This document shows, piece after piece, positions 4,013 to 64,000 of a stretch of DNA of 64,000 bases. The DNA is taken from the NCBI GenBank assembly GCA_964554805.1, contig CAZKPX010000001.1:381798-445797 (forward strand), given 5' to 3'. The stretch's first letter is position 1; each line of letters begins with the position of its first letter. The translations under genes were made by a program, and so were the position numbers. This stretch comes from an uncultured Candidatus Saccharibacteria bacterium. Its GTDB lineage: Bacteria; Patescibacteriota; CAZHWT01. The notes beneath the pieces were generated by a model. That model saw only the letters and a program-made list of their open reading frames with translations, ran no database searches and was not told the DNA's origin.

Positions 4013-4239
4013 TTTTAAAGCTAATAGTGCTGAGTATATTATGTATGCTAAAAGTGGATTATTTTGATTATATATTATACTCAATTTGGAGTTCTGGCAC
4101 TTTTGAGCAAAATCTTAAGCGATAACAGTGTGCGACTGCTAGTCTCCTATGTAAATAAAAAATTTCGTTCAATAACTACATAGAATACATGCTATACTTC
4201 TTCCGTGAACCTGCAGTTGCTTCAAGGAAAGGGATAGGT

Positions 4240-4611: not shown

Positions 4612-4689
4612 AGGGTTGCGCTTCCATCGTCAAACTGAGGCCGTGAAGAGTGCCCCGCTGATATGTTTATTGGCGGGGCTTTCGTTTTA

Positions 4690-4870
4690 TTGTATTGGGG
4701 CTAACCTGTATCCGATATCCGATATCCTATATCCGTGTCTCTATATCCGCCACCGGAAGGTGGTTGGGGTGGGTGGTATCCTGGGGGTCATGGGTATCCG
4801 ATATTCGATATCCCATATCCCATATCCCATATTCGCCACCAGCGGCGGCCTAGCCTTCCGGTACTATTTT
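4690..4870. repeat. cluster of Family B repeats (GATATCCGATATCC units plus gccaccggaaggtgg hairpin)
   Basis: tatccgatatccgatatcctatatccg ... ccgccaccggaaggtgg ... ggtatccgatattcgatatcccatatcccatat read directly; related copies at 9575-9690, 19243-19318, 25596-25651 and 37570-37712. Confidence 0.75.
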
Positions 4871-5269
4871 GGGTGGATTGGGGTGTTGACATGGGAGGTG
4901 ATTTGGGTTATTATCCAGAAGCTTGTTTAACGGCAATGTCTCTGTTAGCCGATCCGGTTAGTTGGGGATTATCCAAAAGCAAGTTTGATTGCGACAATTC
5001 TGTATAAAACTTTGGTTATATATAAGAAGTCGCAGTTTTTCATTAGTAGGTCTTTGTTTAGCTGGTGCTAACTCAGAGAGTGAAGTCCTTTTACAACAAC
5101 ATAACGACAGGAATGCAAGCAAATCTGACGTAATCTAAACGTTCAGATGCATTTCTGAACATGAAATTACGTCAATTTCAAGAGTTAATTACTCCTAAAT
5201 TTAATTTAGGACATGAAACTTCCGATTATTCATGTAACCTTTCGAGGTTTATGGATAACGTACACATTT

Positions 5270-6750
<1,481 letters not shown>

Positions 6751-8038
6751 AAGGAGAAATCTATGTGATTTTCATATCACATGGCAGCTGCATTAACCCC
6801 TCTCACGCGGGGGCAGCATGGTCAACTACTACGTTTTAAGTAATTAGAATATGTAGAACGTTTAAGGTGAAAATCTTAAACTATGGTCTCTAAATTCACC
6901 ATACTCCAAAGAATTTAGGCCACTTCCTGTCGTTATGTTGTTGATAAAGGTTCAATAACAGCCCGTTTGACTCTGTCAGCGGGCTGTGTTGTTGTTATCG
7001 TTGGCTGATTTGAGAATTCAGAGCCTTGTAGGGCTGGTGGTAGCTCGATACGTATGGGCGGTTAATTGTTTGGGCAGTCGGTTAAGGGTAGGCAAGAGGG
7101 TTTGTGCATTGTATTGAATAACCAGGCTACTTGTCGATTATTCAAATGGACTGCATGCTGGGTGATTTCTAAAAACTGTTAATGAATTGAGTTTACTTTC
7201 GTTGTATTTATCAGTTGATAATCAAATCTAGACTCTTGCTATCCCTTTTGATCAATATATTTATACATATAGCGGCTGTGTTAGTATTTCCTTATTGCAG
7301 ATCACTTTTGAGGCTAATACTATTCCTTGTTATTTTATATTAAACACTTATTTGTATATTATTTTTAGTTTATTGTGCTAATTCTTTCTATTTTACTCTT
7401 TGCTGATAGTATATTCTAATGTTATCATGTAACATCTATGATTACTTGATTTTTGTATTATTTAAAATATACTAGTTATTTGTAATCTATAGGGTATGCT
7501 GTTCTTTGTATTGTTGAATATTCTATAGACAATTTTATATCCTGTAATGATTGATACTCTATATATCATTTCTATTATTCTAGACTAATTTCAATAAGTT
7601 CTTAATATTGTTCTATTAGATATATTTGTTTATTTATCGTATTTCGTCTATGATTGCTAGATATTTATCTCTGTATGTTTTCTAATGTGCTGTCTAGCTC
7701 TATTTATTATATGTAAACTCAGAATGATATTTATCAATAATTAGCTTTTATTGAGTAATGCATCGGATATCTTTTGTATCATATTTTGATATTCTATAGT
7801 TTGTTGTTATTGTAACATTATAATGGCTTTAGTATCTTTATCAGTATAATTATATTTTTAATGTTTTAATATTTTGATTGTTTGATCGACTGGCATGATG
7901 TTGTAGAATTGTGTTTAAAGTGACTGTTGCTAGAGAAGATAGATTCTGGTATAGTACGCCATGTCTTTAGGCTTTAGATGACCATCTATTGTTACGCATG
8001 GCGTGTGTTTGATACATATTAAGTAACAGTTACATAGT

Positions 8039-8112
8039 GGCCTCTTGGCCGAGTAGTTAGGCAGCGGTCTGCAAAACCGCGTACAGCGGTGCAAATCCGC
8101 TAGAGGCCTCCA
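8039..8112 (+). tRNA. tRNA-Cys (anticodon GCA), 74 nt with encoded CCA
   Basis: Cloverleaf folded by hand: acceptor ggcctct/agaggcc, anticodon stem gcggt/accgc, loop ctGCAaa, T-arm agcgg-tgcaaat-ccgct, discriminator U73 as expected for Cys. Confidence 0.75.
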
Positions 8113-8311
8113 AAAAATTTGCAGAGCAAATTTTTGAAGTGACGAGTACGAGCGACGAGCACAAAACAATATGATCTAAATAGAATAGTTGCTCAGCTGC
8201 ATAGGTCATGACAATGACCGGTAAATAATAATAAACGAGCGCTTGCGCTCTGGCCAGCAGAGTAGCGGCTTCATTGATAGTTAGTGGTAGCAGTTGAATA
8301 TATCCTTTCGA

Positions 8312-8388
8312 GGGCGATTAGCTCAGCTGGTTAGAGCGCAGATCTGATAAGTCTGAGGTCCATGGTTCGAGTCCATGATCGCCCACCA
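8312..8388 (+). tRNA. tRNA-Ile (anticodon GAT)
   Basis: gggcgattagctcagctggttagagcgcag-atctGATaagtct...ggttcgagtcc...atcgcccacca; typical rRNA-spacer tRNA. Confidence 0.9.
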
Positions 8389-8557
8389 TTTAAGATTTAT
8401 GATTAGTTGCCGTACGTAGTTAATTGTCAGAGCAATGCAATATATAGTCATTTGTTTGATATGGAAGCCATTTTGAGGCTTGACATAGGGGTAGCGAGGT
8501 GTTATATTTGGTTTCGCGTTAGTTGAGCCTTGCACTCCAGATAATTTAATACTATTT

Positions 8558-8633
8558 GGGGCTGTAGCTCAGTTGGTAGAGCGCCACATTTGCAATGTGG
8601 ATGTCTGGAGTTCGAATCTCCACAGCTCCACCA
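8558..8633 (+). tRNA. tRNA-Ala (anticodon TGC)
   Basis: ggggctgtagctcagttggtagagcgcc...ttTGCaa...ggttcgaatcc...cagctccacca; G3:U70 alanine identity pair present. Confidence 0.9.
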
Positions 8634-8952
8634 GAAAAATTGCCTGGCAATTTTTAGTGAAAAGAGAACAGTAGAAGTGAGAAGTTTAGAAGCGAGAAGT
8701 TTGTTCAGCGTTGGATTGGTTTCGTTAGCCCACCCTAACGGAACCTATCTAGGTCTGAATAAGACTTAGCCGATTCAATGCTTTTAGCTGCGGATTGAGT
8801 ACTTTAACAACCGAAAAACAGATTAAATTTGATTTCTATATTTACGAGCCGTAAATATAGAACCAACGTCTTTTTGTTCTTGGTGTAATCGCGAGATTAC
8901 GCTGGGAAACAATGTAGGAAAACGTCAAATAAATCGATCATCTTAGTAAAAC

Positions 8953-12025
<3,073 letters not shown>

Positions 12026-12198
12026 TTGAGTTTTTCTGTCAATTTATTGATAGAAAACGCTAAGGTGATCAAGAATTTGATTTCTTCTCACTAAGAATAT
12101 TGACGTCGTGTATATCAAATTTAGTGTCTCGCACTCGCGTGACCGCTTCTGTTTTTCGGTTGTTAGGGTATTCACCCTAAGAAATGCTTTGACAATAA

Positions 12199-12321
12199 TG
12201 TCTTGGTGATTGATAGCGCTGGTGTCCCACCTCTTCCCATGCCGAACAGAGTCGTGAAAGCTGGCAGCGCCGATGATACTTGGATCGCAAGGCCCTGGGA
12301 AAATAGGTCATCGCCAGGACA
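12199..12321 (+). rRNA. rrf: 5S ribosomal RNA
   Basis: gtcttggtgattgatagcgctggtgtcccacctcttcccatgccgaacagagtcgtgaaagctggcagcgccgatgatacttgg...catcgccaggac matches the 5S consensus; the two ends pair. Confidence 0.85.
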
Positions 12322-49149: not shown

Positions 49150-49318
49150 CTTAGTCAGAGAAGTAACAGTAAAAGAAAAAGAAGAAGAGTCTGGTTGTAT
49201 AAATTGATTGAGTAATAGTGGGATGGGTTGTTTTTCGGTGCATTTCGTTTGGGCTACTTATATAATTGTTTAGCTATACGCACAGGCAATTTTGAGGCTT
49301 TTCTGTTATAATGCGATT

Positions 49319-50896
49319 ATGGCTAAGAAACGTACTCCCTCAATTCCTCAAGATAAAAAGTTGAAAATTCTATTTGTGTCGCCTGAAGTGGCGCCTTATT
49401 CAAAAGTCGGTGGTTTGGCGGATGTGGTGTGGGCTCTGCCGCGGGCTTTACGAGAAATGGGGCATGATGTGCGGATCTTTTCGCCAAAGTTTGGGGCGAT
49501 AGATGAAAGTAAATATTCACTTGAAACCATCATGACTGACCTAAAAGTATCGGGTGGTGAAGAAGAGATTTTGAATTGTAATGTAAAGTTGGGCTATATT
49601 CCTGATGATATTCCGGTATATCTGTTGGAGAATCAAGAATATTACGAGATTCGGGCCAATGTTTATGGCTACGCAGATGATACTCGTCGCTGGTTCTTGC
49701 TGTGTCGAGGTGCTCTGGAATTTTTGAGACAGTTTGACTGGAAGCCAGATGTTATTCATACCAATGACTGGGCAACTGGCTTTGTGGCCAATGATTTGGC
49801 GACTATATATAAAAATGACGCCAAGATTAATTCTATTGCGACAGTATTTTCTATTCATAATATAGAGCATCAGGGAACGTTTGAACCTCGGTCGGTGCCT
49901 GAGATGGAGAAGGACGATGGCCATAGTCCGTTGCCCAGCTTGATGTCTCATAAGGCTTTGAAATTGAACGGTATGCGGCGGGGCATTATCTACTCTGATG
50001 TGATTACGACGGTATCTGAGACCTATGCTCGAGAGATTTTGACGGTAGAGCACGGTGCTGGATTGGACCGGCTGTTGAGGGAACTGCGGACAAAATTGTT
50101 TGGGGTATTGAATGGTCTGGATGCTCGAGTTTTTGATCCAAACAAAGATCCAGACATTTGGTTTAACTATGATGTAGAGGAGCTGGAAAAGAAAGGTGCT
50201 AACAAGCTGGCTTTTCAGAAAGAGTTTGGTCTAGATCAGGATCTTGATGTGCCGGTAGTTGGCTTTGTGGGGCGATTTTTTGAGCAAAAAGGCTTATCCA
50301 TTCTGATGGAAGCTATTGAGAAATTGCTACCAGTGATGGACTTCCAGTTTATCTTTGTTGGATCAGGAGAGTCGCACACTGAAGCAGCTTTGGAGCGACT
50401 GATGCGGGCTCATCCTGGTCGAGTTGGTGGTCACTTGATGATTTCTAAGATTATAGGCCAACAGATTTATGCAGCTAGTGATATATTTTTGTATCCATCG
50501 AAGTTTGAGCCATGTGGTCTGGCTCAGTTGATTGCTATGCGCTATGGATCTATTCCGATAGTTCGTCGAACAGGGGGCTTGGCTGATACAGTTAGTGCCT
50601 ATGACCCAGAGTCTAATAGTGGTACGGGTTTTATCTTTAACGAATACGACGCCACTAGCTTGATCATTCAAATTGTCAGGGCGATTGAAGCCCATCGACA
50701 TAAGTCTAGCTGGCAAGCTCTGATGCGTCGAGCTATGAAGGAAGACTTTTCCTGGGGACACTCGGCTGAAAAGTACGAGCAGCTGTATCATAAAGCTATT
50801 TTGAAGCGCCGACAGTGGTTGAAGAAGGAGGGCTTGATCATGGCCGATGCGCCGACTGAAGTGCCTGGGCCGCTGACTATCTCGCCTCTCGGTTAA
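49319..50896 (+). CDS. glgA: GT5 glycogen/starch synthase family protein, paralog 1
   Basis: KVGGLADVV (KxGGL motif) near the N-terminus; 526 aa. Confidence 0.75.
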   Translation: MAKKRTPSIPQDKKLKILFVSPEVAPYSKVGGLADVVWALPRALREMGHDVRIFSPKFGAIDESKYSLETIMTDLKVSGGEEEILNCNVKLGYIPDDIPVYLLENQEYYEIRANVYGYADDTRRWFLLCRGALEFLRQFDWKPDVIHTNDWATGFVANDLATIYKNDAKINSIATVFSIHNIEHQGTFEPRSVPEMEKDDGHSPLPSLMSHKALKLNGMRRGIIYSDVITTVSETYAREILTVEHGAGLDRLLRELRTKLFGVLNGLDARVFDPNKDPDIWFNYDVEELEKKGANKLAFQKEFGLDQDLDVPVVGFVGRFFEQKGLSILMEAIEKLLPVMDFQFIFVGSGESHTEAALERLMRAHPGRVGGHLMISKIIGQQIYAASDIFLYPSKFEPCGLAQLIAMRYGSIPIVRRTGGLADTVSAYDPESNSGTGFIFNEYDATSLIIQIVRAIEAHRHKSSWQALMRRAMKEDFSWGHSAEKYEQLYHKAILKRRQWLKKEGLIMADAPTEVPGPLTISPLG

Positions 50897-50900
50897 TTTT

Positions 50901-50948
50901 CCACCAAGGGTGGTAAATTAGCGACGGGCGACGAGCGACGGGCGACGG
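50901..50948 (+). repeat. hairpin ccaccaagggtgg followed by the (GCGACGR)x4 heptamer microsatellite
   Basis: ttttccaccaagggtggtaaattagcgacgggcgacgagcgacgggcgacgggg. Confidence 0.75.
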
Positions 50949-51082
50949 GGACAAATCTAGCTACAGGGACTCTAGCATTATCATAGCTCTGTATGGAGTG
51001 TTTAAAATCTGGTGCTGGCTCGTCGCACTGACTAGAAGGAAGCGAGTGACAGGCAAGCGTTATGTGTGTAGAATTGGATTGT

Positions 51083-52495
51083 ATGAAGATTTTGTTTGTG
51101 GCTTCTGAGGTTACTCCTCTTATTAAATCTGGCGGTTTGGCTGATGTTGTGGGCGGCTTGCCGTTGGCATTGGCAAAACAAGGACACGATGTGCGAGTGG
51201 CGATTCCGGCTTATCACGGCATCGATAAGGAGCAGCTTGGTGTACGATTGGTGGCTGAGAATGATTTTCAGGCGGGGAATCAGGCAGTCTCTAGTAAGGT
51301 GTTTGAAGGCTCATTGGCTGGATCGGTGGGGCTGTATTTGGTTGAGTTTGAGCCAGGCTTGGCCCGGCCAGCCTTGTATCCTAGAGTAGAAGATGGTGAT
51401 CAAGATAGATTTGTCATATTTGGATTGACAGTTTTGGAATGGCTGAGGGAGTCGCAGTGGCAGCCGCATTTAATACACGGCCATGACTGGATGACTGGCT
51501 CGTTGATGGCTGAAATAAAACACAGACGCTTGCCGTACGGGACGGTTTTAACAGTCCATAATGGTGCTTATCAGGGGTTGGTAGCTGGAAGCATATGTCA
51601 GTCGCTAGGCCTGGACTATGATCAAGACGAGTCAGGCATGGTTAATCTTCTGCAGGTGGGTTTGGAGCAGGTTGATCGAATAACAACGGTTAGCCAGACG
51701 TACGCTAGGGAGCTGATTGAGTTGGGTGGAGGGCATGGTCTTGAGGCAACGTATAGAAGTAGGCAGGTCGATACAGTTGGGATTATCAATGGTATCGATA
51801 GCGAGCGCTTTAATCCTTGGCATAATCCGTATGTTCAGCCTGGATATAATGCACGGACTGTCGACAAAGCGAAGCAGCAGCATAAGCATTTGCTTCAGAT
51901 TGAGTTTGGATTGCCAGCCAAGCGCGATTTGCCTTTGTTTGGTATGGTAGGCAGAGCTACTCCTGACAAAGGGTTTGATTTAATTGCTGAGGTGATCTCA
52001 TCCACGCCTTTGCTGGAGCAGGCTCAGGTGGTAATTCTGGCATCGCCTGAGGTTGAAACGGTGGAAAAGGATTTGAAGCATCTGGTTAAAAAGTATCCTC
52101 AGAACTTGCACATCTCGGTTGGCTTTGATGAAGCTATGGCTCATCGGATGTATGCGGCGTGTGATTTTTTTATTATGCCGTCTCGGCGAGAGCCTTGCGG
52201 CCTGGTTCAGCTGATTGCCATGAAGTATGGGGCAATACCGATTGTTCATAAAACCGGGGGGCTGGCTGATACGGTGGTTGATATTCGAGATGGCGATAAA
52301 GGCACAGGTATCGTTTTTAGTGATTATGCAGCGCAAGGTTTGGGGAATGCTCTGGGAAGATCAATGGGTCTATATTACGATCACTTGAGGATGCCTGGTA
52401 TGGTTAAAAGAGTGATGAAGCAGGATTGGTCTTGGGATAGGACAGTAGGGGAATATGAAGCGGTGTATGAGTCTTTGGTGAGAAAAGAGGAGTAG
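51083..52495 (+). CDS. glgA: GT5 glycogen/starch synthase family protein, paralog 2
   Basis: IKSGGLADVV KxGGL motif; 470 aa; in tandem with paralog 1. Confidence 0.75.
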   Translation: MKILFVASEVTPLIKSGGLADVVGGLPLALAKQGHDVRVAIPAYHGIDKEQLGVRLVAENDFQAGNQAVSSKVFEGSLAGSVGLYLVEFEPGLARPALYPRVEDGDQDRFVIFGLTVLEWLRESQWQPHLIHGHDWMTGSLMAEIKHRRLPYGTVLTVHNGAYQGLVAGSICQSLGLDYDQDESGMVNLLQVGLEQVDRITTVSQTYARELIELGGGHGLEATYRSRQVDTVGIINGIDSERFNPWHNPYVQPGYNARTVDKAKQQHKHLLQIEFGLPAKRDLPLFGMVGRATPDKGFDLIAEVISSTPLLEQAQVVILASPEVETVEKDLKHLVKKYPQNLHISVGFDEAMAHRMYAACDFFIMPSRREPCGLVQLIAMKYGAIPIVHKTGGLADTVVDIRDGDKGTGIVFSDYAAQGLGNALGRSMGLYYDHLRMPGMVKRVMKQDWSWDRTVGEYEAVYESLVRKEE

Positions 52496-53076: not shown

Positions 53077-54036
53077 ATGGAAATACGACTAGATCCGGTG
53101 ACTGGACAACCTGTTTTGTTGGCGACTGAGCGCAGCAAGAGACCTCACTTTGGGAAATCTAAAATTGGTTTGCGGCCGAAGTTGGATAAGCATAGACTGC
53201 AGGATGGAGCTTTGAAAAAGGTTAATCCGTTTGCTCCCGGCAATGAAGAAATCACTGGCTCAGAGGTGTATTCGGTTAGCGATAATCCAAGACATTTGCC
53301 TAATCAGTCGGATTGGAAGATACGGGTCATACCTAATAAATACCCGATCGGCAAGCATCATGAAGTAATCATCCACAGTCCTTCGTCGAACCTAGATTTG
53401 GATAGGTTGAGCATGAAGCAGGTCGAGCGTTTAGTGGGGACGTACGTCATTAGGTCTAAATTTTTATCAGATAAGGGCCAAGTGTTTTTGTTTTGTAATC
53501 ACGGAGATGAGGCGGGTGCGTCTATTGATCACCCTCATAGCCAGATCTTGGCTTTGCCTACGCTGCCACCGGCTATTTTGGCAAAAGTGGAGGCGGTTAA
53601 GAACTACTATGACCAAGAGGGACAATGTCTGTATTGTCAGCTCATTGAGAGGGAGCTGGAAATAGGGCGGCGAGTGGTATGGCAAAATGATGATTTTGTG
53701 TTGATGTGCCCTGAAGCTTCTGGTTGGCCGTATCAACTACAATTATTGCCTAAAATTCACCAATCGCATTTGGTTTCAGTAAATAAAGCTGGGCAGCAGT
53801 CGTCGCTGGCAGAAGCTTTGAGGGTGATGGTTAGGCTTTATAATCGGGTGCTGGATAAGCCTTCGTATAATTTTTGGTTCAATACAGTTAAAGGGCAGTT
53901 TTTTCACTGGCATATTGATATGGTGCCTCGGGCTAAGGTGTTGGCTGGGTTAGAGCTAGGAGCGGGCTTGATGGTCAATGATCGTCTTAGTCCTGAGGAG
54001 GCAGCCAAGGTATTTCGACTTAGTCTAAACGCTTAG
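53077..54036 (+). CDS. galT: galactose-1-phosphate uridylyltransferase (GalT) family nucleotidyltransferase
   Basis: N-terminal DPVTGQPVLLATERSKRPH and active-site HPHSQI (H-x-H-x-Q); CLYCQ zinc site. Confidence 0.7.
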   Translation: MEIRLDPVTGQPVLLATERSKRPHFGKSKIGLRPKLDKHRLQDGALKKVNPFAPGNEEITGSEVYSVSDNPRHLPNQSDWKIRVIPNKYPIGKHHEVIIHSPSSNLDLDRLSMKQVERLVGTYVIRSKFLSDKGQVFLFCNHGDEAGASIDHPHSQILALPTLPPAILAKVEAVKNYYDQEGQCLYCQLIERELEIGRRVVWQNDDFVLMCPEASGWPYQLQLLPKIHQSHLVSVNKAGQQSSLAEALRVMVRLYNRVLDKPSYNFWFNTVKGQFFHWHIDMVPRAKVLAGLELGAGLMVNDRLSPEEAAKVFRLSLNA

Positions 54037-54296
54037 TTTTGGGTGTTTGAAGGCGATAAGACAAAAGATGATAGACAGCAGCTGGACTGAAGTGATACAC
54101 TTTTATATAGAATGAGATGGTAATGGGGTTGATTTTAGAGCTTCTGTATTTAAGCGCTCCTGGCCGTTTTGATCCTGTGGTGCGGTCTGGGTGTGAGTTG
54201 CCCTGCGTCAGGATGGTTGGGACTATGTTGGTCAGCAATAATGAATTAATCGCGTACTCGCCGCTTGTGTTTGTGGCGCGACTGAAAGGACTTAGT

Positions 54297-54488
54297 ATGG
54301 CATTGGGTGATGAATTACCAGATTTGTTAACAGTTAGAGAAGCTGCAGAATTTTTGCGAGTGACACCGTTGACAATTAAGCGGTGGGGCAAAAAGGGTAA
54401 GCTGCAGCCGATTAGAATTAACTCGCGAGGGGATCGGCGGTATACCAAGGAACAGGTGCTGTGGTTGGTGGGGAAGAGTCCGGACTAG
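54297..54488 (+). CDS. small helix-turn-helix DNA-binding protein (excisionase/MerR-like)
   Basis: MALGDELPDLLTVREAAEFLRVTPLTIKRWGKKGKLQPIRINSRGDRRYTKEQV has the LT-x-x-E-x-A-x-x-L-x-V-x-x-x-T helix-turn-helix pattern; internal ATG of track ORF 54117-54488. Confidence 0.5.
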   Translation: MALGDELPDLLTVREAAEFLRVTPLTIKRWGKKGKLQPIRINSRGDRRYTKEQVLWLVGKSPD

Positions 54489-54500
54489 ATGTGTATAGGG

Positions 54501-54577
54501 GCAGTCCTGGGTGCTATTTTTTAAGAATTTGAGGCCCCGTTGGAAATAAATTCATAAAAAATAGCATCCAGGACTGC
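54501..54577. promoter_or_regulatory. 21-bp imperfect inverted repeat with a 32-nt spacer
   Basis: gcagtcctgggtgctatttttt ... aaaaaatagcatccaggactgc; sits between the helix-turn-helix gene and the giant gene. Confidence 0.4.
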
Positions 54578-54605
54578 TGGGCAGTAAGGGTTGATATAAG
54601 ATGTT

Positions 54606-54614: not shown

Positions 54615-54893
54615 TAAGAGTTGAAAATTGAAACTTATATCAAGTCTATGGGGTTATGTTTTTCTTATTCTAGGGTGTCAGTAGGACTAATTTGTTGAGT
54701 TGTTTTTTAATCCTGGGTATTTAAGTTGTTCAATATAGTTGTTTAATGGTTTTTGTGATAATAAATATGCTCATTGTTCCTGACATTGACGCTGTATGCT
54801 TGGTTGCTATAAAATTGTGGTAGTACTTATTAAAGATAGTCTTCTAGCTGGCCATGGGTAGGAGATATTATAGCTTGTAAGTGCCCTGCCCGC

Positions 54894-57800
54894 ATGCTTG
54901 ACTGGAAACGATTACTCCTGATAATTGGTGTTTGTATAACTGCTGCAGTTCTTGCTGTGGCGATTTTGAATTTTGAGCAGGTTCGGTCTCTGATAATGGG
55001 TCGGGCTGACTTGGGCGATGCCAGGACTTTGAATGGCATGACAGCGGATGAGCTGCTGGCCCTGAGTAAGCCTTTGGATGCCCGGACTTTGAATGGTCAG
55101 CCGGGGTTGTATTATGTGACGGCCGAAAACCTGGTCGGCATCATCGCCCCTGAGCGTTTCTCCGCCTATGATTCCCTGGTGGCTCAAGGCAAGATAGATC
55201 CGGATTCCCAACTGATTACTAATAAGAATTTCCCTAGCCTTCCGAAGGCTAGCCTCGAATCGCCTTCCGAAGGCTCGGGGGTTGGGCAGAGTGATTTGGA
55301 GGCTTTGGCTGCGGGTTTGCGGGTGGAGATGAGTCAAACGTATGTGTCTGAGGTGGAGGCTGGATTGGGGTTGAGTGGGGGTGGAGGATCGGGTAAGGTG
55401 GCTTTGAATATTGTACCGGGAGTGGGGATTATCATTCAGAATGGTCAAGTGATAGCTGCTCTGGGAGATTCGGTAGATTTGCTGGCGGAAGTGGCTGGAG
55501 TGCTACAGATCGCTCATGGGGGCATAGGGCTCAGTTCGCTGATTACTGATGGGCAATTGCTGATGGCTAATGGTGGTGGATATGAGGGTGGGATTTTGGC
55601 GGCGGGGGATGGGGTAGAAATTGCACGAACTGGTAATACTTTTACGTATAGCTTGGATGCGACGGTCTGTCGGACTTCAGGGAACTGTTCGGGAGCTGGT
55701 GGCTCAATTGTGGGTGCTGGAACAGCTGGGCAGTTAGCTTTCTTTACTGATGGCAGCACGTTGTCGAGTGAGGCTGGTTTGAGCTGGAACTCGGGTACTG
55801 ACAGCCTGACGGTGGCAGGTCAGTTGAATGGAGCCAGTGTGAGTACCGGCTGGGTGGATGTGACAGGGCAATATCGGGTTAACGGGGTGGCTTTGAATAC
55901 GACTCATGTCTTGGAAGGCACTAATCTGTACTGGACTCAGGGACGATTTGATACGGCCTTAAGTGACAAAACTACTGATGATCTGGCTGAGGGTTCTGCT
56001 AATCTGTTCTGGACCCCGGCCCGCTTTAATGCTGCTCTGGCAGGCAAATCTACGACTGATGTCGTTGAGGGAACTAATCTGTACTGGACTCAGGGGCGGT
56101 TTGATACGGCTTTCCTGGCTAAGGATACTGATGATCTGACTGAAGGCAGCACGGCTCTTTTCTGGACTAATAATCGGTTTGATCTACGGTTGGCTACCAA
56201 GTCGACTTCGGATATTGGCGAGGGGACAAATCTGTATTACACGGCTCAGCGGTTTAATGACGCCTTTGCTGGTAAGTCGACCACTGACTTGGCTGAGGGG
56301 GTTAATCTTTATTACACTGATGGTCGGGTGTCTGGCAATGCTGATGTGGCGGCCAACACACTGGCTCGCCATGTGGCTGCTACCGTCTCGGATAGTTCAA
56401 CGATTGATTTTAGCATCATCGGCCAACAGATCTCAGGTTCAATTATTCAGTCTGGAATTCAGACTTCTTTGATTACTAATGACGCCGGCTTTATCTCGAC
56501 TATCTCGCTGGCCTCGTTTGATACTGATGACCTGGCTGAGGGATCGATTAATAAGTATTTCTCGGATACTTTGTTTGGCGCTTCATTGGCCACTCGGACC
56601 AGCGATGATCTGGCTGAGGGCTCGGTTAATTTGTTCTTTACGACCGGCCGTTTTGATGCAGGATTTGGCGCAAAGACTTCAGATAACTTAGCAGAAGGAT
56701 CGGTCAACCGCTACTATTCGGATGCCTTATTCGGCACTTCGTTGGCTTTGCGGGATAGTGATGAGGTGGCAGAGGGGTCGACTAACCTGTATTACTCGTT
56801 GAGTCGGTTTGATGCGGCATTTGATAGCAAAACAACTGACAATTTGGATGAGGGTACTAACGCTTTGTACTGGACGGATAACCGTTTTGACCTGCGGTTG
56901 GCGACTAAGTCTACTACAGATATTGTCGAGGGGACGAACTTATATTTTACTCAATTACGGGTGTCTGCTAATGCTGATGTAGTGGCTAATGCGGCGGCTC
57001 GGCATGATGCGGCTACGGTGGGTGATAGTGCGACGCTGGATTTGACGATAGCCGGGCAGTATATTACGGGTACGGTGATTCAATCAGGGATACAGACTTC
57101 GCTGATCAATAATGATGCCGGGTTTGTTGCCAATATTTCCAGCTTTGATACGGATAATCTGACTGAGGGATTGCTTAATCTGTATTGGACGGCAGGGCGG
57201 TTTAATGCGGCCTTTGGCGGTAAGTCGACGACTGATTTGGCTGAGGGGACTAATTTGTACTATACCTCGGTGCGGTTTGATGATGATTTTGAAGGCAAGA
57301 CGACTGATGATTTGAGCCAGGGCTCGACTAATCTTTATTCGCAGTGGTTGAATAATAGTTCGAATATTACTTTTGGTAATAGTGTGGCCATTGGCACAGC
57401 TACGGCTCCGGAGGCTACCTTGGATGTGGAGGGGACATTGAGGGCTAGTGGAGCAGTGACGCTGGCTAATTACACCACTAATGGGGGCATTTTGTATGCT
57501 AATGGTTCAGGCGTATTGAGCCAGTTGGGTCTGGGGACGACTGGGCAATGTCTGGTGTCAACAGAGGGTGTGCCGGCCTGGGGTTCTTGTGCGGCGGCCG
57601 GGACGGTGACGGGCAGCGGCTCTGCGGGCCGGTTGGCTTTATTTGATGGGGCGAATAGTCTGACCAGTAGTGCGGCTTTGTCCTGGAATAGTGTGTCGGG
57701 CCTGCTGGCGATTGATGGTGGTATTTCGATAACCGGCGATATCATTCCAACGACTGACAATACTTATAGTCTGGGTTCGCCGGAGATGTCGTGGATGGAT

Positions 57801-60800
57801 GTCTATATCGGACCGGGATCTTTGTATATTAACGGGCAGAAGGTGTTGCAGGAGTCGGGGGAGAGTATTGTGGTGACGGCTGATTCGGGGCAGAATTTGT
57901 CGCTGCAGACGGCTGGTGGGGGAGATCTGGAACTGATGGCTCAGGGGGCGGGTCTGATTCAGCTGAAGGGCAATGTGCAGCTGACTGGCGGCAGTTCGAT
58001 TACAACTTCTGACACATCGGTGGTGTTGCTGCCAAATGGTTTGCGAGCTGGCAATATTCAGGTGTCGGGCAATACGATTAGCACAACTAATGTGAATGGT
58101 GATATTGCCATTACACCGAATGGGGCGGGGGATACGTATATTACATCGGGGAATTTGGGAGTTGGCAATAGTAACCCAAATCCATTATATCGGCTGGATG
58201 TAACGGGTAGTATTAATGCTACGGGTAATTTTTATGTTAATGGGGCGGCTTTGTCGACGACCAATGTGGCTGAGGGGACTGGTTTGTATTGGACATCGGG
58301 GCGGTTTGATACGGCTTTTGGGGGCAAGACGACTGATGACTTGGCTGAAGGCTCATCGGCTTTGTACTGGACTAATAACCGGTTTGATTTGCGGTTGGCG
58401 GCTAAGTCGACTTCAGATATTGCTGAGGGAACGAATTTGTACTATACAGCTGGTCGGTTTGAGGCGGCTTTTGCTGGTAAGTCGACCACTGATTTGGCTG
58501 AGGGAGTGAATCTTTATTACACTGATGGTCGGGTGTCTGGCAATGCTGATGTGGCGGCCAATACGCTGGCCCGGCATGTGGCGGCGACGGTGTCTGATAG
58601 CTCAACGATTGATTTTTCACTTGTGGGGCAGTTGATTTCAGGAAGCGTTATTCAGTCGGGTATTCAAACATCGCTGCTTAATAATGATGCTGGGTTTATC
58701 TCGACTATTTCTCTGACAACTTTTGATACGGATGATTTGACTGAGGGTGGGCTGAATCTGTATTGGACGGCTGATCGATTCAATAGTGCTTTTGGTGGTA
58801 AGTCGACTTCGGATTTGGCTGAGGGAAGTAATCTGTACTATACGACGGTGCGGTTTGATGCTGATTTTGCCACCAAAGATACTGACGATCTATCAGAAGG
58901 CTCGACCAATCAGTACTGGACCAGTGGTCGGTTTGATAGTGCTTTGGCAGGCAAGGATAGTGATGATGTAGCTGAGGGTTCGACTAATCTTTATTCACAG
59001 TGGTTGAATAATAGTTCGAATATTACTTTTGGTAATAGTGTGGGGATTGGTTCAGCCAGTGCGCCGACTGCTACGTTGGATGTGACGGGTACGTTAAAAG
59101 TTAGCGGGGCAGTGACTTTGGCTAATTACACGACTAATGGCGGCCTGCTTTATGCTAATGCTTCAGGTGTTCTATCACAGTTGGCAGCAGGAACGACTGG
59201 ACAATGTTTGCAGGCTAATACGGGAGCTGCAGCGAGCTGGGGGACTTGTTTTGCTGTTGGGGATGACTCTTTGAATTTTGATAAGTTGGCTGATGCCCTA
59301 ACTCTGGATGCTTCGACTTCGATTGCTTTGGGAGCGTTTACTTTGAGTACGTCTGGTACTGGTGGGATTACCTTTGGTCATACGGGAGCTACGACTTTTG
59401 CTGGTACGGTGACTTCGGCTGGACTATTGACGGCTTCGAATGGGTTTACGTTAACTACCGGCTCGTTGTCTTTGCCTAATAATGTGATTACGGATGCTAT
59501 GGTATCTAATACGCTGACTTCGTCAATCTTTATTGGGTCAGGGTCAACTACTAATGCAGTGGATCTGGGCACGGCTGAGGTAGCTGGGACATTAGCGATT
59601 GCTAATGGTGGTACTAACTCAACCGCTACACCGACGCAAGGTGGGATTGCCTATGGAACTGGTAGTGCTTATGCCTTTACTGGGGCTGGAGCTACAGGGC
59701 AGTGTTTGACGAGTGATGGAACCAATACGCCAGTGTGGGCAGCTTGTGAGACTGAGGTGGGGAAGGATTGGGTTCAGCATACCCTGCCTGAAGATAATGG
59801 TTGGACTTCTGTGGCATATGGTAATGGAACCTATGTGGCTGTAGCTAATAATGGAACTAATAGGGTGATGACGAGTACGGATGGCAAGAACTGGAAGGTG
59901 GGTCCTGCAACAGAAGCCAATGTTTGGGATTCGATAACTTATGGAAACGGTATATTTGTGGCAGTGTCTTCTGACGGTACTCATCGCGTTATGACCTCGC
60001 CTGATGGTATCACTTGGACTGCTAGACTGGTGGAAAGTTTGGCTTGGCATTCCGTTGTCTATGGGGACGGAAAGTTTGTAGCAGTGGCTAGCGGCGCTGG
60101 CACTAATCAAGCAATGACTTCTCCAGATGGCATTACCTGGACTACTGGCTCTATATCGACAGAGCCATGGAGGCAGGTTGCCTATGGTAATGGCATGTTT
60201 GTGGCTACAGCAGACAACAATGCTTTAGCAAGCTCTCCTGACGGTATTACCTGGACGAGTAGAACTTCGCCTTTGTCGGGGGGGATTTGGTCTATGGTTT
60301 ACGGTAATGGTCAGTTTGTAGCAGTGGCAATTGGTGGCGCAAATAGGGTCATGACTTCTCCTGACGGTATTGCCTGGACCGCTAGGACTGCAGCCGAGGC
60401 TAATGATTGGTTTGGTGTGACTTATGCCGAAGGCGTATATGTGGCGGTAGCTAGCAATGGTACCAATAAGGTTATGACCTCTCTGGATGGTATAACCTGG
60501 ACGGCTCGAAGTGCCCCTACCAGTGGCCTATGGAAATCTGTAGTTTATGGCAATGGTCAGCTTGTAGCGGTTGGTTGGAATGGTACTAATCGAGTTATGA
60601 CTTCTGGTTCTCCAACTCAAACCATTATCCCTCACAACAACATCTATCAAGGCGGGATGACGGTGAATGATGGGTTGAAGGTGAGTGGGAAGACTACTTT
60701 GACTTCGAATGAGACGGTGAATAAGGGGAGTGAGTGGGTGTCCCATGAGGGGGTGGAAGGTCACTGGCTATCAGTTGCTTACGGTAATGGGCGATATGTA

Positions 60801-63800
60801 GCAGTGGCTAATACTGGCACTAACAGGGTGATGACATCGTCAGATGGTGAGACTTGGACAGCTTATCCAGCAGCTGATCAAAGCTATTGGATTTCTGTGG
60901 CTTATGGCAACGGTACGTTTGTAGCGGTTGCCTATCTTGGCAGTGGTAGTCGGGTTATGACTAGCCCTGATGGTGAGACCTGGACGGCTCAGGCAGCGGC
61001 TCAGGCTAATAGCTGGCAATCTGTAACTTATGGCAATGGCCAGTTTGTAGCAGTAGCTAGTTCGGGCACCAACCGGGTTATGACTAGCCCTGATGGTGAG
61101 ACCTGGACGGCTCAGACAGCGGCCGAGGCTAATTATTGGTACTCTGTGACCTACGGTAATGGTCAATTTGTAGCAGTAGCGGGTATTGGTGCTAACCGTG
61201 TTATGACAAGTCCCGATGGCATCACCTGGACGGCTCAGGCAGCCGCTGAGGCTAATTTCTGGAGGGATATTACCTATGGCAGTGGCCAATTTGTAGCGGT
61301 ATCTACTGATGGCACTAACCGTGTTATGACTAGTCCCGATGGCGCAACCTGGACTGCTCGGGTAGCCGCTGAAGCTAATGGATGGGGCAGCGTCACCTAC
61401 GGCAACGGCCAGTTTGTGGCGGTGGCTGATAGCGGCGCCAACCGCGTTATGACCAGTCCAGATGGTGAAACTTGGACAGCCAGGGCTGCAGCTGAGTCTA
61501 ATAGCTGGATTTCGGTTACCTATGGCAATGACAAGTTTGTAGCCGTGGCTGCTAGTGGCACCAACAGAGTTATGACTAGCGTCAATGTCGGACTATCTGA
61601 GGCCTTGTTGGTTAGTGGCGATACTGCTTTGCTAGGTGATTTACGTCTTAGCTCTCTGGCTAGTGGGTCGAGTGGTCTTTTGACGATTGATCATGCCGGA
61701 CTGGTGTCAAGCACCTCAGTATCTAGCTCTATGGAGGATTGTTTGAGGGGAGGGGGTGTGCTGCAGTGGGCTCCTTGCAAGGCGGAGCCTGGACAAGTAT
61801 GGGTAGTCTCTGAATCGGCTGAGAATAATAATTGGGGATCAATTGCTTATGGTAACGGTGTGTTTGTGGCAACCTCCTATAACGGTAGCAATACTGCTAT
61901 GTACAGTCTTGATGGCAAGGTTTGGCATGCGGCGGATACTCATGGGGCTTACTCTTGGAACTCAGTCACCTACGGCAATGGTCAATTCGTAGTGGTTGGT
62001 GAGAGTGACTATGACCAGGGTGAAGTCATGACCAGTCCAGACGGCATAAATTGGACTCTTCGATCTGGTGTTGAGGATAGTTTGTGGTATTCGGTTACTT
62101 ACGGCAACGGCCAGTTCGTGGCAGTGGCTTATGCTGGAGACGATCGAGTCATGACTTCGCCAGATGGTGAGACTTGGACAGCCCAATCCGCGGCTACGCA
62201 AAGTGACTGGAATTCGGTGGTGCATGGTGGTGGAAAATTTGTAGCTGTTTCATGGAGTGGTCAGGTTATGACTAGCCCAGACGGTGCGACCTGGACAACT
62301 CAATCTGCCGCCGAAGCGAATAGCTGGCAATCGGTTACTTACGGCAACGGCCAGTTTGTGGCAGTGGCTGCTAGTGGCACCAACCGTGTTATGACCTCAC
62401 CTGACGGCGAGATTTGGACAGCCCGATCTGCAGCCGAACAAAATAATTGGGGATCAGTAACGTATGGCAATGGAGTATTTGTAGCAGTTTCTGGATCTGG
62501 TACTCATCAAGTCATGACCTCGCCCGATGGTATCTCTTGGAAGCCTCAGATGGCAGCTGCAAGTAGTAGCTGGGCCGCAGTGACGTATGGTGGCGGTCGT
62601 TTTGTAGCAGTAGCTTGGAGTGGCGGTAGTAGGGTCATGACCTCGACGGTTGATAATTACGATAAGTCATTCTTTGGTACGACAACGATTGGCGATATTG
62701 GTGGGAATGATGGGTTGGTGGTGAATGGGAAGACTACTTTGACATCCCAGGAGACGGTGAATAAGGGGGGTGAGTGGGTGGCTCGGACTGCAGCTGGGTC
62801 CCATCCATGGCAGTCAATTGCCTATGGTAATGGTCAGTTTGTGGCGGTAGCAAGTAGTGGCGCAGTCCGGGTTATGACTTCACCTGACGGTATTACCTGG
62901 GCCGCTAGAACTGCGGCCGAGGCTAATCAATGGGTATCTGTGTCTTACGGAGGCGGTATGTATGTAGCTGTATCCAATACAGGCACAAACCGGGTTATGA
63001 CCTCACCTGACGGCATAACCTGGACTGCTCGAACTGCAGCTGAGCTCAATCTATGGAAGTCAATTGCCTATGGTAATGGTCAGTTTGTGGCAGTGGCCAG
63101 TTTTGGTACTAATAGGGTTATGACTTCACCTGACGGTATTACCTGGACTGCTCGTGCCGCCGCTGAGGCTAATAACTGGAATTCTGTGACCTATGGCAAT
63201 GGGATGTTTGTAGCCGTGGCAGAATTTGGCACCAACCGAGTTATGACCTCACCTGACGGCATAACCTGGACTGCTCGAACTGCAGCTGAGGCGAATAATT
63301 GGTATGCGGTTGCCTATGGCAATGGCCAGTTTGTCGCAGTAGCTTATGACGGTGCCAACCGTGTTATGACTAGCCCCGATGGCATCACCTGGACTGCTCG
63401 TGCCGCAGCTGAGGCTAATAGCTGGCGGTCGGTTACCTATGGCAATGGTCAGTTTGTGGCTGTAGCTAGTTTTGGCACTAATCGGGTCATGACCTCTCCT
63501 GATGGTGAGACTTGGACAGCCAGAGCTGCAGTTGAGGCTAATAGCTGGAGGTCGGTTACCTATGGCAATGGTCAGTTTGTGGCGGTGGCTGATAGCGGCA
63601 CCAACCGGGTTATGACCAGCGGTGATGTTGGTTTGGGTCAGGCCCTCAGGGTTCAGGGAGATTTTGCTTTAGCTGGTGATCTGCGGTTGAGCAGTCTGGA
63701 GGGGGGAGCTGGCGGACTGTTGTCAGTTGATCATGCTGGATTGGTTAAGTCGGTTCCTCATGGTAATAGTGGTGAATGTTTGAGATCCGGAGGGTCTGCG

Positions 63801-64000
63801 CATATCCAATGGGCAGCTTGTGATGGTGAAGCTGCAGAATACTGGACTTCTCAGTCGGCTGCAGCGGCAGGTTGGTGGAGTTCAGTTGCGTACGGCAACG
63901 GTATGTTTGTAGCAGTGGCAGAATCGGGTACTAACCGCGTCATGACTAGTCCTGATGGTGAGACCTGGACCGCCAGGGTTGCCGCGGAAGCTAATAGCTG
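54894..64000 (+). CDS. giant membrane-anchored repetitive surface protein, over 3035 aa and truncated by the window end
   Basis: ATG at 54894 after an in-frame stop at 54846; N-terminal transmembrane helix LLLIIGVCITAAVLAVAIL; frame 0 stays open to 64000 by manual translation; about 25-aa repeats TDDLAEGSTNLYYT-x-x-RFD-x-AF-x-GKS; more than 40 repeats of about 45 aa, NRVMTSPDG-x-TWTARAAAEAN-x-W-x-SVTYGNGQFVAVA, where SPDGxTW matches the Asp-box/BNR motif S-x-D-x-G-x-T-W. Confidence 0.8.
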   Translation, partial: MLDWKRLLLIIGVCITAAVLAVAILNFEQVRSLIMGRADLGDARTLNGMTADELLALSKPLDARTLNGQPGLYYVTAENLVGIIAPERFSAYDSLVAQGKIDPDSQLITNKNFPSLPKASLESPSEGSGVGQSDLEALAAGLRVEMSQTYVSEVEAGLGLSGGGGSGKVALNIVPGVGIIIQNGQVIAALGDSVDLLAEVAGVLQIAHGGIGLSSLITDGQLLMANGGGYEGGILAAGDGVEIARTGNTFTYSLDATVCRTSGNCSGAGGSIVGAGTAGQLAFFTDGSTLSSEAGLSWNSGTDSLTVAGQLNGASVSTGWVDVTGQYRVNGVALNTTHVLEGTNLYWTQGRFDTALSDKTTDDLAEGSANLFWTPARFNAALAGKSTTDVVEGTNLYWTQGRFDTAFLAKDTDDLTEGSTALFWTNNRFDLRLATKSTSDIGEGTNLYYTAQRFNDAFAGKSTTDLAEGVNLYYTDGRVSGNADVAANTLARHVAATVSDSSTIDFSIIGQQISGSIIQSGIQTSLITNDAGFISTISLASFDTDDLAEGSINKYFSDTLFGASLATRTSDDLAEGSVNLFFTTGRFDAGFGAKTSDNLAEGSVNRYYSDALFGTSLALRDSDEVAEGSTNLYYSLSRFDAAFDSKTTDNLDEGTNALYWTDNRFDLRLATKSTTDIVEGTNLYFTQLRVSANADVVANAAARHDAATVGDSATLDLTIAGQYITGTVIQSGIQTSLINNDAGFVANISSFDTDNLTEGLLNLYWTAGRFNAAFGGKSTTDLAEGTNLYYTSVRFDDDFEGKTTDDLSQGSTNLYSQWLNNSSNITFGNSVAIGTATAPEATLDVEGTLRASGAVTLANYTTNGGILYANGSGVLSQLGLGTTGQCLVSTEGVPAWGSCAAAGTVTGSGSAGRLALFDGANSLTSSAALSWNSVSGLLAIDGGISITGDIIPTTDNTYSLGSPEMSWMDVYIGPGSLYINGQKVLQESGESIVVTADSGQNLSLQTAGGGDLELMAQGAGLIQLKGNVQLTGGSSITTSDTSVVLLPNGLRAGNIQVSGNTISTTNVNGDIAITPNGAGDTYITSGNLGVGNSNPNPLYRLDVTGSINATGNFYVNGAALSTTNVAEGTGLYWTSGRFDTAFGGKTTDDLAEGSSALYWTNNRFDLRLAAKSTSDIAEGTNLYYTAGRFEAAFAGKSTTDLAEGVNLYYTDGRVSGNADVAANTLARHVAATVSDSSTIDFSLVGQLISGSVIQSGIQTSLLNNDAGFISTISLTTFDTDDLTEGGLNLYWTADRFNSAFGGKSTSDLAEGSNLYYTTVRFDADFATKDTDDLSEGSTNQYWTSGRFDSALAGKDSDDVAEGSTNLYSQWLNNSSNITFGNSVGIGSASAPTATLDVTGTLKVSGAVTLANYTTNGGLLYANASGVLSQLAAGTTGQCLQANTGAAASWGTCFAVGDDSLNFDKLADALTLDASTSIALGAFTLSTSGTGGITFGHTGATTFAGTVTSAGLLTASNGFTLTTGSLSLPNNVITDAMVSNTLTSSIFIGSGSTTNAVDLGTAEVAGTLAIANGGTNSTATPTQGGIAYGTGSAYAFTGAGATGQCLTSDGTNTPVWAACETEVGKDWVQHTLPEDNGWTSVAYGNGTYVAVANNGTNRVMTSTDGKNWKVGPATEANVWDSITYGNGIFVAVSSDGTHRVMTSPDGITWTARLVESLAWHSVVYGDGKFVAVASGAGTNQAMTSPDGITWTTGSISTEPWRQVAYGNGMFVATADNNALASSPDGITWTSRTSPLSGGIWSMVYGNGQFVAVAIGGANRVMTSPDGIAWTARTAAEANDWFGVTYAEGVYVAVASNGTNKVMTSLDGITWTARSAPTSGLWKSVVYGNGQLVAVGWNGTNRVMTSGSPTQTIIPHNNIYQGGMTVNDGLKVSGKTTLTSNETVNKGSEWVSHEGVEGHWLSVAYGNGRYVAVANTGTNRVMTSSDGETWTAYPAADQSYWISVAYGNGTFVAVAYLGSGSRVMTSPDGETWTAQAAAQANSWQSVTYGNGQFVAVASSGTNRVMTSPDGETWTAQTAAEANYWYSVTYGNGQFVAVAGIGANRVMTSPDGITWTAQAAAEANFWRDITYGSGQFVAVSTDGTNRVMTSPDGATWTARVAAEANGWGSVTYGNGQFVAVADSGANRVMTSPDGETWTARAAAESNSWISVTYGNDKFVAVAASGTNRVMTSVNVGLSEALLVSGDTALLGDLRLSSLASGSSGLLTIDHAGLVSSTSVSSSMEDCLRGGGVLQWAPCKAEPGQVWVVSESAENNNWGSIAYGNGVFVATSYNGSNTAMYSLDGKVWHAADTHGAYSWNSVTYGNGQFVVVGESDYDQGEVMTSPDGINWTLRSGVEDSLWYSVTYGNGQFVAVAYAGDDRVMTSPDGETWTAQSAATQSDWNSVVHGGGKFVAVSWSGQVMTSPDGATWTTQSAAEANSWQSVTYGNGQFVAVAASGTNRVMTSPDGEIWTARSAAEQNNWGSVTYGNGVFVAVSGSGTHQVMTSPDGISWKPQMAAASSSWAAVTYGGGRFVAVAWSGGSRVMTSTVDNYDKSFFGTTTIGDIGGNDGLVVNGKTTLTSQETVNKGGEWVARTAAGSHPWQSIAYGNGQFVAVASSGAVRVMTSPDGITWAARTAAEANQWVSVSYGGGMYVAVSNTGTNRVMTSPDGITWTARTAAELNLWKSIAYGNGQFVAVASFGTNRVMTSPDGITWTARAAAEANNWNSVTYGNGMFVAVAEFGTNRVMTSPDGITWTARTAAEANNWYAVAYGNGQFVAVAYDGANRVMTSPDGITWTARAAAEANSWRSVTYGNGQFVAVASFGTNRVMTSPDGETWTARAAVEANSWRSVTYGNGQFVAVADSGTNRVMTSGDVGLGQALRVQGDFALAGDLRLSSLEGGAGGLLSVDHAGLVKSVPHGNSGECLRSGGSAHIQWAACDGEAAEYWTSQSAAAAGWWSSVAYGNGMFVAVAESGTNRVMTSPDGETWTARVAAEANS

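Follow-up and report, generated by a model that had tools for sequence, protein, structure and literature searches.

A giant open reading frame in a Candidatus Saccharibacteria genome encodes a predicted surface fibre with phage-type repeats and a chain of beta-propellers

To our knowledge, little is known, beyond type IV pili, about how the ultra-small bacteria in the Candidate Phyla Radiation (CPR), also called Patescibacteria, find their hosts and hold on to them. All cultivated Patescibacteria are episymbionts (PMC12206443), and for the CPR bacterium Vampirococcus lugosii giant membrane proteins have been proposed to mediate host recognition and attachment (PMC8080830). Here we describe a gene that begins near the end of a 64,000-nucleotide segment of the genome of an uncultured Candidatus Saccharibacteria bacterium (assembly GCA_964554805.1, contig CAZKPX010000001.1, positions 381,798 to 445,797; this whole segment is referred to below as the window). 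In our judgement, with a probability of roughly 55%, its product is a giant cell-surface fibre, in which beta-propellers are multivalent heads that bind a structure on the surface of a host cell, while a repetitive shaft holds them out. The Vampirococcus proteins, which are compared here by description only, are likewise very large, membrane-localised and of CPR origin, but other interaction domains are listed for them, and the words 'propeller', 'fiber' and 'fibre' occur nowhere in the text of PMC8080830.

Other described systems resemble individual parts of this giant protein. YadA-type trimeric autotransporter adhesins also use a repetitive stalk to hold binding heads off the cell; their anchor, however, is a C-terminal outer-membrane barrel of their own, in contrast to the N-terminal helix of the giant protein, and the 3035 residues encoded within the window, with the C-terminus lying beyond it, give no Pfam match to the YadA head, stalk or anchor. 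The proteins of T4-like cyanophages that make up PHROG 697 are giant and fibrous, too, and contain the same 25-residue repeat (T-x-D-L-x-E-G-x-N-L-Y-Y-T-x-x-R-x-D) in runs broken by variable inserts, but they are phage-encoded beside neck genes and have neither a membrane anchor nor a propeller chain. Finally, the photosystem II assembly factor Ycf48/HCF136 (PDB 5OJR, 2XBG) is a seven-bladed, non-enzymatic binding propeller to which those of the giant protein can be likened.

The modules of the giant protein belong to described families, and giant surface proteins have been recognised in CPR bacteria before. What is new is the architecture, in which a rare stem with a signal anchor is combined with a shaft of the cyanophage type and with five or more short-Asp-box propellers, arranged as a duplicated two-propeller unit. 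A second novelty is that the protein can be linked explicitly to the fibre of a T4-like phage (P0041) in which both modules occur.

The open reading frame and the modules of its product

The frame opens on the plus strand, on which all parts of the gene given below lie, with the ATG at 54894, which is the first canonical start after an in-frame stop at 54837, and proceeds through 3035 codons without a stop to the end of the window (54894..64000, the 5' part of a gene that runs on beyond it). At the base composition of the segment, the expected chance of such a stop-free run is about 1e-68, and the longest open reading frame (ORF) in the other frames over the same interval has at most 178 amino acids. 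A preliminary description of the window had reported a stop-free gene of more than 9 kb that is the largest present, and this is borne out, with the second-largest gene encoding 854 amino acids. On a Logan contig from a separate assembly of public reads (L002, run SRR16798009), the last 200 nucleotides of which are identical to the window and which ends at 55151, a gene caller chose the same start codon. The idea that repeats had caused this contig to break off was rejected, since it ends ahead of the first repeat.

An assembly artefact within the gene, i.e. collapsed or mis-joined reads, was likewise rejected: the repeat copies have diverged (55-81% DNA identity), and the longest exact internal repeat measures 53 nt. 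Between repeat copies, different codons are used at 40-57% of the conserved residues (16% in the short 41-residue linker A, see below). This combination of diverged DNA and conserved protein points to old duplications that were kept by selection on the protein, i.e. purifying selection acts on the repeats of the giant protein.

At the N-terminus there is a single hydrophobic transmembrane helix of the signal-anchor type (amino acids 6-27; 54909..54974), preceded by K5 and R6 on its N-terminal side, in agreement with the membrane anchor noted in the preliminary description. The Kyte-Doolittle mean over 19 residues reaches a maximum of 3.06 here; the sole other 19-residue window above 1.6, and only just so, starts at residue 186, and the 3035 residues contain no comparable hydrophobic segment. 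The helix is followed by a stem module (amino acids 28-335; 54975..55898), in which the motifs FSAYDSLV and VCRTSGNCS are strongly conserved. This module is known from four sequences in total, i.e. the giant protein itself and its homologues P0001 (48%), P0393 (62%) and P0394 (48%), and two scans of the JGI metagenomes, for which a single sequence was used in one case and a four-member profile in the other, did not find it.

All 12 cysteines outside the membrane helix occur as six close pairs, five of which are set in a G-x-C-L-x(6-9)-W-x-x-C loop. This Cys-loop mini-motif (at amino acids 886, 1438, 1604, 2283 and 2962, i.e. around positions 57549, 59205, 59703, 61740 and 63777) gives no family matches. 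It closes each of the knobs or type-B linkers described below and sits just ahead of propellers 1, 3 and 5; P0001, too, has it before its own propeller. A single transmembrane helix together with paired cysteines is consistent with an extracytoplasmic, disulfide-stabilised protein. The LPxTG motif of sortase-anchored surface proteins does not occur in the 3035 residues, with the C-terminus lying outside the window.

The putative shaft consists of the fibre repeat, of which the preliminary description had counted dozens at about 25 residues each. The repeat is confirmed, its number amounting to 23 copies (about two dozen) at a spacing of 25-26 amino acids, which follow the pattern EG-x(2-4)-[YF][YFWS] and the longer consensus T-x-D-L-x-E-G-x-N-L-Y-[YWF]-T-x-x-R-F-D-x-x-F-x-x-K. 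The copies are arranged in two blocks, the first of which (amino acids 336-815; 55899..57338) has 15 repeats and two inserts of ~55 residues, with the second (amino acids 1121-1367; 58254..58994; 8 repeats and one insert) being a diverged duplicate of part of the first (up to 89% amino acid and 80% nucleotide identity). Between these blocks lies middle region 1 (amino acids 816-1120; 57339..58253), which opens with a knob containing the loop C-x12-C (GQCL...W..C) and also has a beta-rich stretch with a weak likeness to a tail spike (phrog_1171, 1.4e-6) and a tail fibre family (phrog_15695, 2e-4). Middle region 2 (amino acids 1368-1625; 58995..59768), which opens with a second knob and has two more Cys-loop mini-motifs, gave no family match in profile scans.

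The fibre repeat is matched by the PHROG 697 profile 'structural protein' in three stretches (E 1.9e-52, 179 bits) and by no Pfam or NCBIfam family. With tblastn it is found in 158 phage records, every one of them a cyanophage, at 35-38% identity over ~480 amino acids, and the respective proteins are annotated as 'structural protein'. In phage T4, the position upstream of gp13/gp14 holds the genes for the short tail fibre and fibritin. In cyanophage Syn19, the protein with the repeat (Syn19_095, ADO99462.1; 2162 amino acids, here annotated 'YadA domain-containing structural protein') is encoded directly upstream of the neck genes gp13/gp14, and when set against the gene order of T4, it is by position a presumptive virion fibre. 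Whereas the PHROG 697 proteins are encoded in phage genomes as virion components, the giant gene is located in a chromosome, with housekeeping genes and an rRNA operon around it, and its product has a membrane anchor.

Among 229 homologues obtained with the full-length query, most have the fibre repeat alone in common with the giant protein and, judged by their N-termini, resemble phage proteins of this type; named giant-protein homologues come from Dojkabacteria, Paceibacterota and Parcubacteria. A scan of viral contigs with the fibre block gave three weak loci and nothing more, the sequence search of PDB with the fibre regions returned chance matches only, and nothing relevant was found in the literature on the repeat strings NLYFT and NLYYT. 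An AlphaFold2 (AF2) monomer model of seven fibre repeats, with one short helix per repeat, is unreliable, with a predicted local distance difference test score (pLDDT) of 46 and a predicted template-modelling score (pTM) of 0.22.

From residue 1626 on, the protein is made of blades with the motif YGNGxFV, 29 of which lie within the window. The preliminary description had seen these blades as dozens of repeats of about 45 residues built around T-S-P-D-G-x-T-W-T; their period, however, is 41 amino acids (123 nt), and they come in groups of exactly seven, i.e. as four complete, discrete propellers and the start of a fifth. Propeller 1 (amino acids 1626-1905; 59769..60608), propeller 2 (1947-2230; 60732..61583), propeller 3 (2303-2585; 61800..62648) and propeller 4 (2628-2910; 62775..63623) have median blade identities of 0.49, 0.71, 0.56 and 0.78, respectively, and propeller 5 (2986-3035; 63849..63998) is cut by the window end. 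Propellers 1 and 3 are followed by a linker of type A (amino acids 1906-1946; 60609..60731; second copy 2586-2627; 62649..62774; 89% nucleotide identity between the two), and propellers 2 and 4 by a linker of type B, which includes the Cys-loop mini-motif (amino acids 2231-2302; 61584..61799; second copy 2911-2985; 63624..63848). With the linkers alternating A, B, A, B, the duplicated unit is thus a propeller pair of ~680 residues, and median blade-to-blade identity alternates, too, across propellers 1-4.

The motif S-P-D-G-x-T-W is present in 25 blades, with the other four being the seventh blade of each complete propeller, which runs into the linker; positions 2, 16-17, 29, 35 and 41 of the blade are variable. 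An assignment of this motif to the Asp-box or bacterial neuraminidase repeat (BNR) signature, which forms propeller blades, had been made in the preliminary description and stands with respect to the propeller, but not with respect to the canonical BNR, since the canonical Asp-box S-x-D-x-G-x-T-W has 0 matches in the giant protein and the Pfam families BNR, BNR_2 and PSII_BNR do not match at E <= 1. The blades rather fit the short 's-Asp-box' S/t-x-D/n-x-x-x-W/f/y, which is one residue shorter and has been described as a derived form with a shorter hairpin (Quistgaard & Thirup 2009, PMC2716378). In known structures the short Asp-box is usually found in one or two blades (PMC2716378); in the giant protein it occurs in six of the seven blades per propeller. 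According to the AF2 model, each blade has four strands, and the motif sits in the hairpin that joins strands 3 and 4.

Structure prediction for one repeat block, which had been proposed as a check, yielded a confident seven-bladed propeller: the AF2 model of propeller 2, based on a 20-sequence alignment, has a pLDDT of 95.7, a pTM of 0.93 and 7 x 4 strands. Judged by this model, the seven-bladed beta-propeller fold is clear, with the evolutionary lineage of the fold being less certain. Its top PDB match in Foldseek is Ycf48 (template-modelling (TM) score 0.72-0.74, E 5e-12), and a sequence search of PDB with the propeller gave chance matches only. Among Pfam families, EPTP (PF03736) matches the blades with E 2.6e-34 (117.5 bits against a cutoff of 21), with positions 12-32 of 42 and thus about half of the profile aligned, and DUF6242 (PF19755) matches with E 3.5e-19 (70 bits), both scores exceeding the whole-protein thresholds of Pfam; neither family accounts for function. 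Matches to DUF285/PARCEL were below threshold and rejected. With these two families and PHROG 697 matched, and with relatives named 'tail fiber domain-containing protein' by NCBI, the earlier statement that no described family corresponds to the gene does not hold; the profile searches have led to described families, not to a functionally characterised one, which the preliminary description would have taken as a refutation.

As most characterised Asp-box propellers are glycosidases (PMC2716378), the propeller chain could also be a sialidase-like array of glycoside hydrolases that degrades polysaccharide of the host or the environment, and such a reading would suit the many sugar-metabolism genes in the neighbourhood and a weak Pfam match of the middle region to an endosialidase tail-spike domain (E 0.015). 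Membership in the canonical BNR or sialidase families was rejected, however, with no profile match and 0 canonical motifs, and neither FRIP nor RIP, i.e. the F/Y-R-I-P signature of GH33 sialidases, is found in the 3035 residues. Moreover, the near-identical blades of propellers 2 and 4 (71-78% identical to each other by median) are at odds with the asymmetric active site of the GH33 type, and Ycf48, the nearest relative by structure, binds without being an enzyme. Because of the near-identical blades, the missing sialidase signature and a nearest solved relative that binds, we favour binding over catalysis and consider an array of hydrolases quite improbable.

Relatives in phages and in cellular genomes

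The combination of the propeller with at least three fibre repeats was present in 3 of the 154 propeller proteins examined, i.e. in P0041, P0155 and P0001. P0041 (1744 amino acids), which is encoded on a T4-like phage contig (JGI 3300046753) and whose gene adjoins gp13, gp14, gp15 and terminase, comprises seven repeats and one propeller, with Peptidase_S74, the intramolecular chaperone domain of phage tail fibres and spikes, at the C-terminus. Its fibre repeats (64% over 53 amino acids) and its seven-bladed propeller (37-43% over ~255 amino acids) resemble those of the giant protein, but it is without a membrane anchor, has one propeller instead of at least five and carries Peptidase_S74. P0155, with a signal peptide, repeats, propellers and Peptidase_S74, is encoded among cellular genes and adjoins a second gene that combines a propeller with Peptidase_S74.

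The closest relative overall, P0001 (1691 amino acids, Logan SRR31724220), belongs to a cellular genome. It has the same order of parts, with a hydrophobic anchor, stem (48%, as given above), fibre repeats (58-61%), Cys-loop and propeller (48-59%), but is of about half the length or less, has only one propeller and a long middle region rich in beta structure, and differs in its C-terminal domain. The 3' neighbours of its gene encode NusA, IF-2, S15 and PNPase, and no phage genes were called on either side. Peptidase_S74, which is present in P0041, P0137 and P0155, is absent from P0001, and there is none in the 3035 residues of the giant protein, the C-terminus of which lies past the window end. 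At the locus L088 (positions 1159-8831, GCA_040384025.1), a propeller with Peptidase_S74 is encoded by each of two cellular genes that lie side by side (891 and 1666 amino acids), next to genes for GAPDH, RpiB, Rpe and a pilin-like protein; the genes for phage-style self-processing fibres thus seem to have ordinary cellular neighbours at this site.

The propeller as such is far more widespread. An exhaustive search of 1.84 billion cluster representatives yielded 35,152 matches at E <= 1e-3 and 8,509 at E <= 1e-30, which gives a family size of ~35,000 clusters, defined at 50% identity. Many of these matches are giant multi-propeller proteins, and among the best 150, chains of roughly 2-11 propellers are usual by motif counts. 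In species-representative genomes, the propeller occurs in Saccharibacteria and other CPR, Bacteroidota, Leptospira, Afipia, Arenicella, Planctomycetes, Actinomycetes, Paenibacillus, Lysinibacillus and a metagenome-assembled genome (MAG) of Nanoarchaeia. Free-living cultured hosts, with identities of 33-78%, include Leptospira chreensis, L. ognonensis, Afipia massiliensis DSM 17498, Flavobacterium arsenatis, Paenibacillus turicensis and Lysinibacillus capsici, and the propeller of the Nanoarchaeia MAG falls into the same range.

The relatives bear the source names 'tail fiber domain-containing protein' (NCBI), 'beta strand repeat-containing protein' and 'Ig-like domain-containing protein', and phage records with a homologous propeller are labelled 'host specificity protein', 'baseplate wedge initiator' or 'Ycf48-like'. 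In a viral structure library, the propeller matches a Caudovirales protein with a tail-fibre intramolecular chaperone domain and a Hokovirus collagen-repeat protein, each with a TM score of 0.96 and ~50% identity.

The presence of the same propeller strings in many free-living bacteria of unrelated phyla would be in keeping with the giant protein being a general envelope or matrix protein, i.e. an S-layer-like coat, a spacer or an aggregation or biofilm fibre, that does not recognise a specific partner, and its repetitive, low-complexity-like composition, with G, A, T and S making up 46% of the residues, is typical of structural surface proteins. The modules, however, are those of phage host-recognition fibres, the variable blade positions 2, 16-17, 29, 35 and 41 fit the diversification of a binding face, and the very rare N-terminal anchor module speaks against a conserved component of the envelope. 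We therefore regard a purely structural role as unlikely, if the least unlikely of the alternatives discussed here.

Gene neighbourhood and organism

The window is a segment of a bacterial chromosome with a 16S-tRNA-23S-5S operon, and the ~20 kb upstream of the giant gene contain genes for ArgRS, MreB, several glycosyltransferases, two starch-synthase-like proteins and GalT. With both repeat modules occurring in phage virion proteins, the giant gene could nevertheless belong to a prophage, or to an element derived from a phage, that has been inserted into the chromosome, and encode its virion fibre (tail fibre or other), all the more as a gene of the excisionase-type HTH_17 family lies directly upstream, the GC content of the giant gene (0.48-0.53) is slightly above the window average of ~0.45, and its 3' side is located beyond the window. 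Yet virion fibres do not feature a membrane anchor, and none is present in P0041 or the cyanophage proteins, no phage genes were found among those scanned from ~34.9 to 54.5 kb, and the orthologous gene of P0001 is followed on its 3' side by housekeeping genes, with no phage genes called on either side. Furthermore, GC skew (strongly positive, 0.12-0.42, throughout the window) and gene orientation (nearly all long ORFs lie on the plus strand) are continuous with the chromosome. A prophage fibre thus seems the least probable of the alternatives.

The small gene directly upstream, which is of the HTH_17/MerR_1 type (helix-turn-helix, HTH; 54123..54488, plus strand), is separated from the giant gene by an inverted repeat, the 24-bp arms of which match perfectly and flank a spacer of 31 nt (54500..54578; RNA fold -47.7 kcal/mol, z -6.96), and which could be a bidirectional terminator or an operator. 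About 80 nt ahead of the ATG there is a candidate sigma-70-type promoter, TTGACG-18-TAAAAT (54786..54815, plus strand), proposed from 10/12 consensus matches. HTH_17 also occurs fused to the N-terminus of five giant homologues (P0045, P0047, P0064, P0065 and P0096; Paceibacterota where named), in which it is followed by a transmembrane (TM) helix at amino acids 95-240 and then the fibre. As a pattern in sequences, adjacency here and fusion there hints at a functional coupling of HTH_17 with the fibre.

In its most specific form, such coupling would make the giant protein the outer sensor of a contact-signalling system with the upstream HTH protein, i.e. the split version of the HTH-TM-fibre fusions, and the gene being adjacent and co-oriented, with a palindrome between the two, would be in line with it. 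With just five cytoplasmic residues, however, the giant protein itself cannot signal to DNA; the adjacency comes from a single genome, as contig L002 stems from the population that also gave the window, and the gene of P0001 is not accompanied by one for HTH_17; and the palindrome may be a plain terminator. As in the case of the hydrolases, a sensor role appears rather improbable to us.

The genes further upstream form a sugar and envelope gene cluster with GT4 and WecG/TagA-type transferases and MreB, followed by a tandem pair of starch/glycogen-synthase-like GT5 genes (49292-52495) and a GalT-like gene (53077-54036) just upstream of the giant gene. In the rRNA operon (5269-12319), ~1.3 kb lie between the end of the 16S gene (6748) and tRNA-Cys (8039), which is placed ahead of the usual tRNA-Ile and tRNA-Ala, and the 23S match extends over 3078 nt compared to a model of 2925 positions, i.e. 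insertions are possible. The nearest named relatives of ArgRS belong to WWE3, Nealsonbacteria and the 'Patescibacteria group' (39-45%), with unnamed sequences reaching 62%. From few sequence markers of this kind, we take the organism to belong to a CPR/Patescibacteria lineage that has been poorly sampled.

Proposed function and its meaning

In the host-binding fibre that we propose, the N-terminal helix would anchor the protein in the cytoplasmic membrane, with the remainder outside the cell. The stem module would come first, followed by a shaft of two blocks of the cyanophage-type 25-residue repeat, broken by the disulfide-looped knobs. At the distal end, the at least five seven-bladed short-Asp-box propellers, arranged in the duplicated two-propeller unit with alternating linkers, would be the multivalent heads by which the fibre binds a structure, probably a glycan, on the surface of the cell that the bacterium lives on. 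By keeping these heads clear of the envelope, the shaft would follow the logic of phage receptor-binding fibres, in whatever oligomeric state the protein may assume, with the difference that the fibre is tethered to a cell. The role of a cell-surface adhesin, which had been suggested in the preliminary description, thus remains plausible; we infer attachment to a partner cell from the lifestyle of cultivated Patescibacteria and from the proposal made for the giant proteins of Vampirococcus, and rate each of the alternatives discussed above well below it.

Several points weigh against this proposal. The C-terminus lies beyond the window, and a catalytic, toxin or chaperone domain may be located downstream. 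P0001 is without Peptidase_S74, which leaves phage-like trimeric assembly unsupported for this subgroup, and with the monomer model of the fibre repeats at a pLDDT of 46, the term 'shaft' is an analogy with phage proteins. As free-living Bacteroidota, Leptospira, Afipia and Paenibacillus have the same propeller, it is no special property of episymbionts, and the taxonomic placement is based on one protein with 39-45% identity to named CPR sequences.

A bolder and more doubtful idea, which we put forward tentatively, is that CPR bacteria and T4-like phages have a common toolkit for host recognition. An episymbiont might then catch its host much as a phage does, with a phage-type fibre that has become fixed in the membrane and multiplied to at least five heads, and the HTH-fused relatives might be contact sensors that report directly to DNA.

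The giant gene is a concrete and testable candidate for host attachment in CPR bacteria, i.e. a membrane-tethered fibre with two main modules as found in phage virion fibres. The propeller family to which it belongs spans many phyla as well as viruses, and its members are mislabelled 'photosystem II assembly factor', 'EPTP' or 'tail fiber domain'; a single propeller ligand, once established, would inform thousands of annotations. Cultured propeller carriers provide tractable organisms for functional work, and the gene itself offers a way into this very large family as well as into the study of host binding by CPR bacteria.

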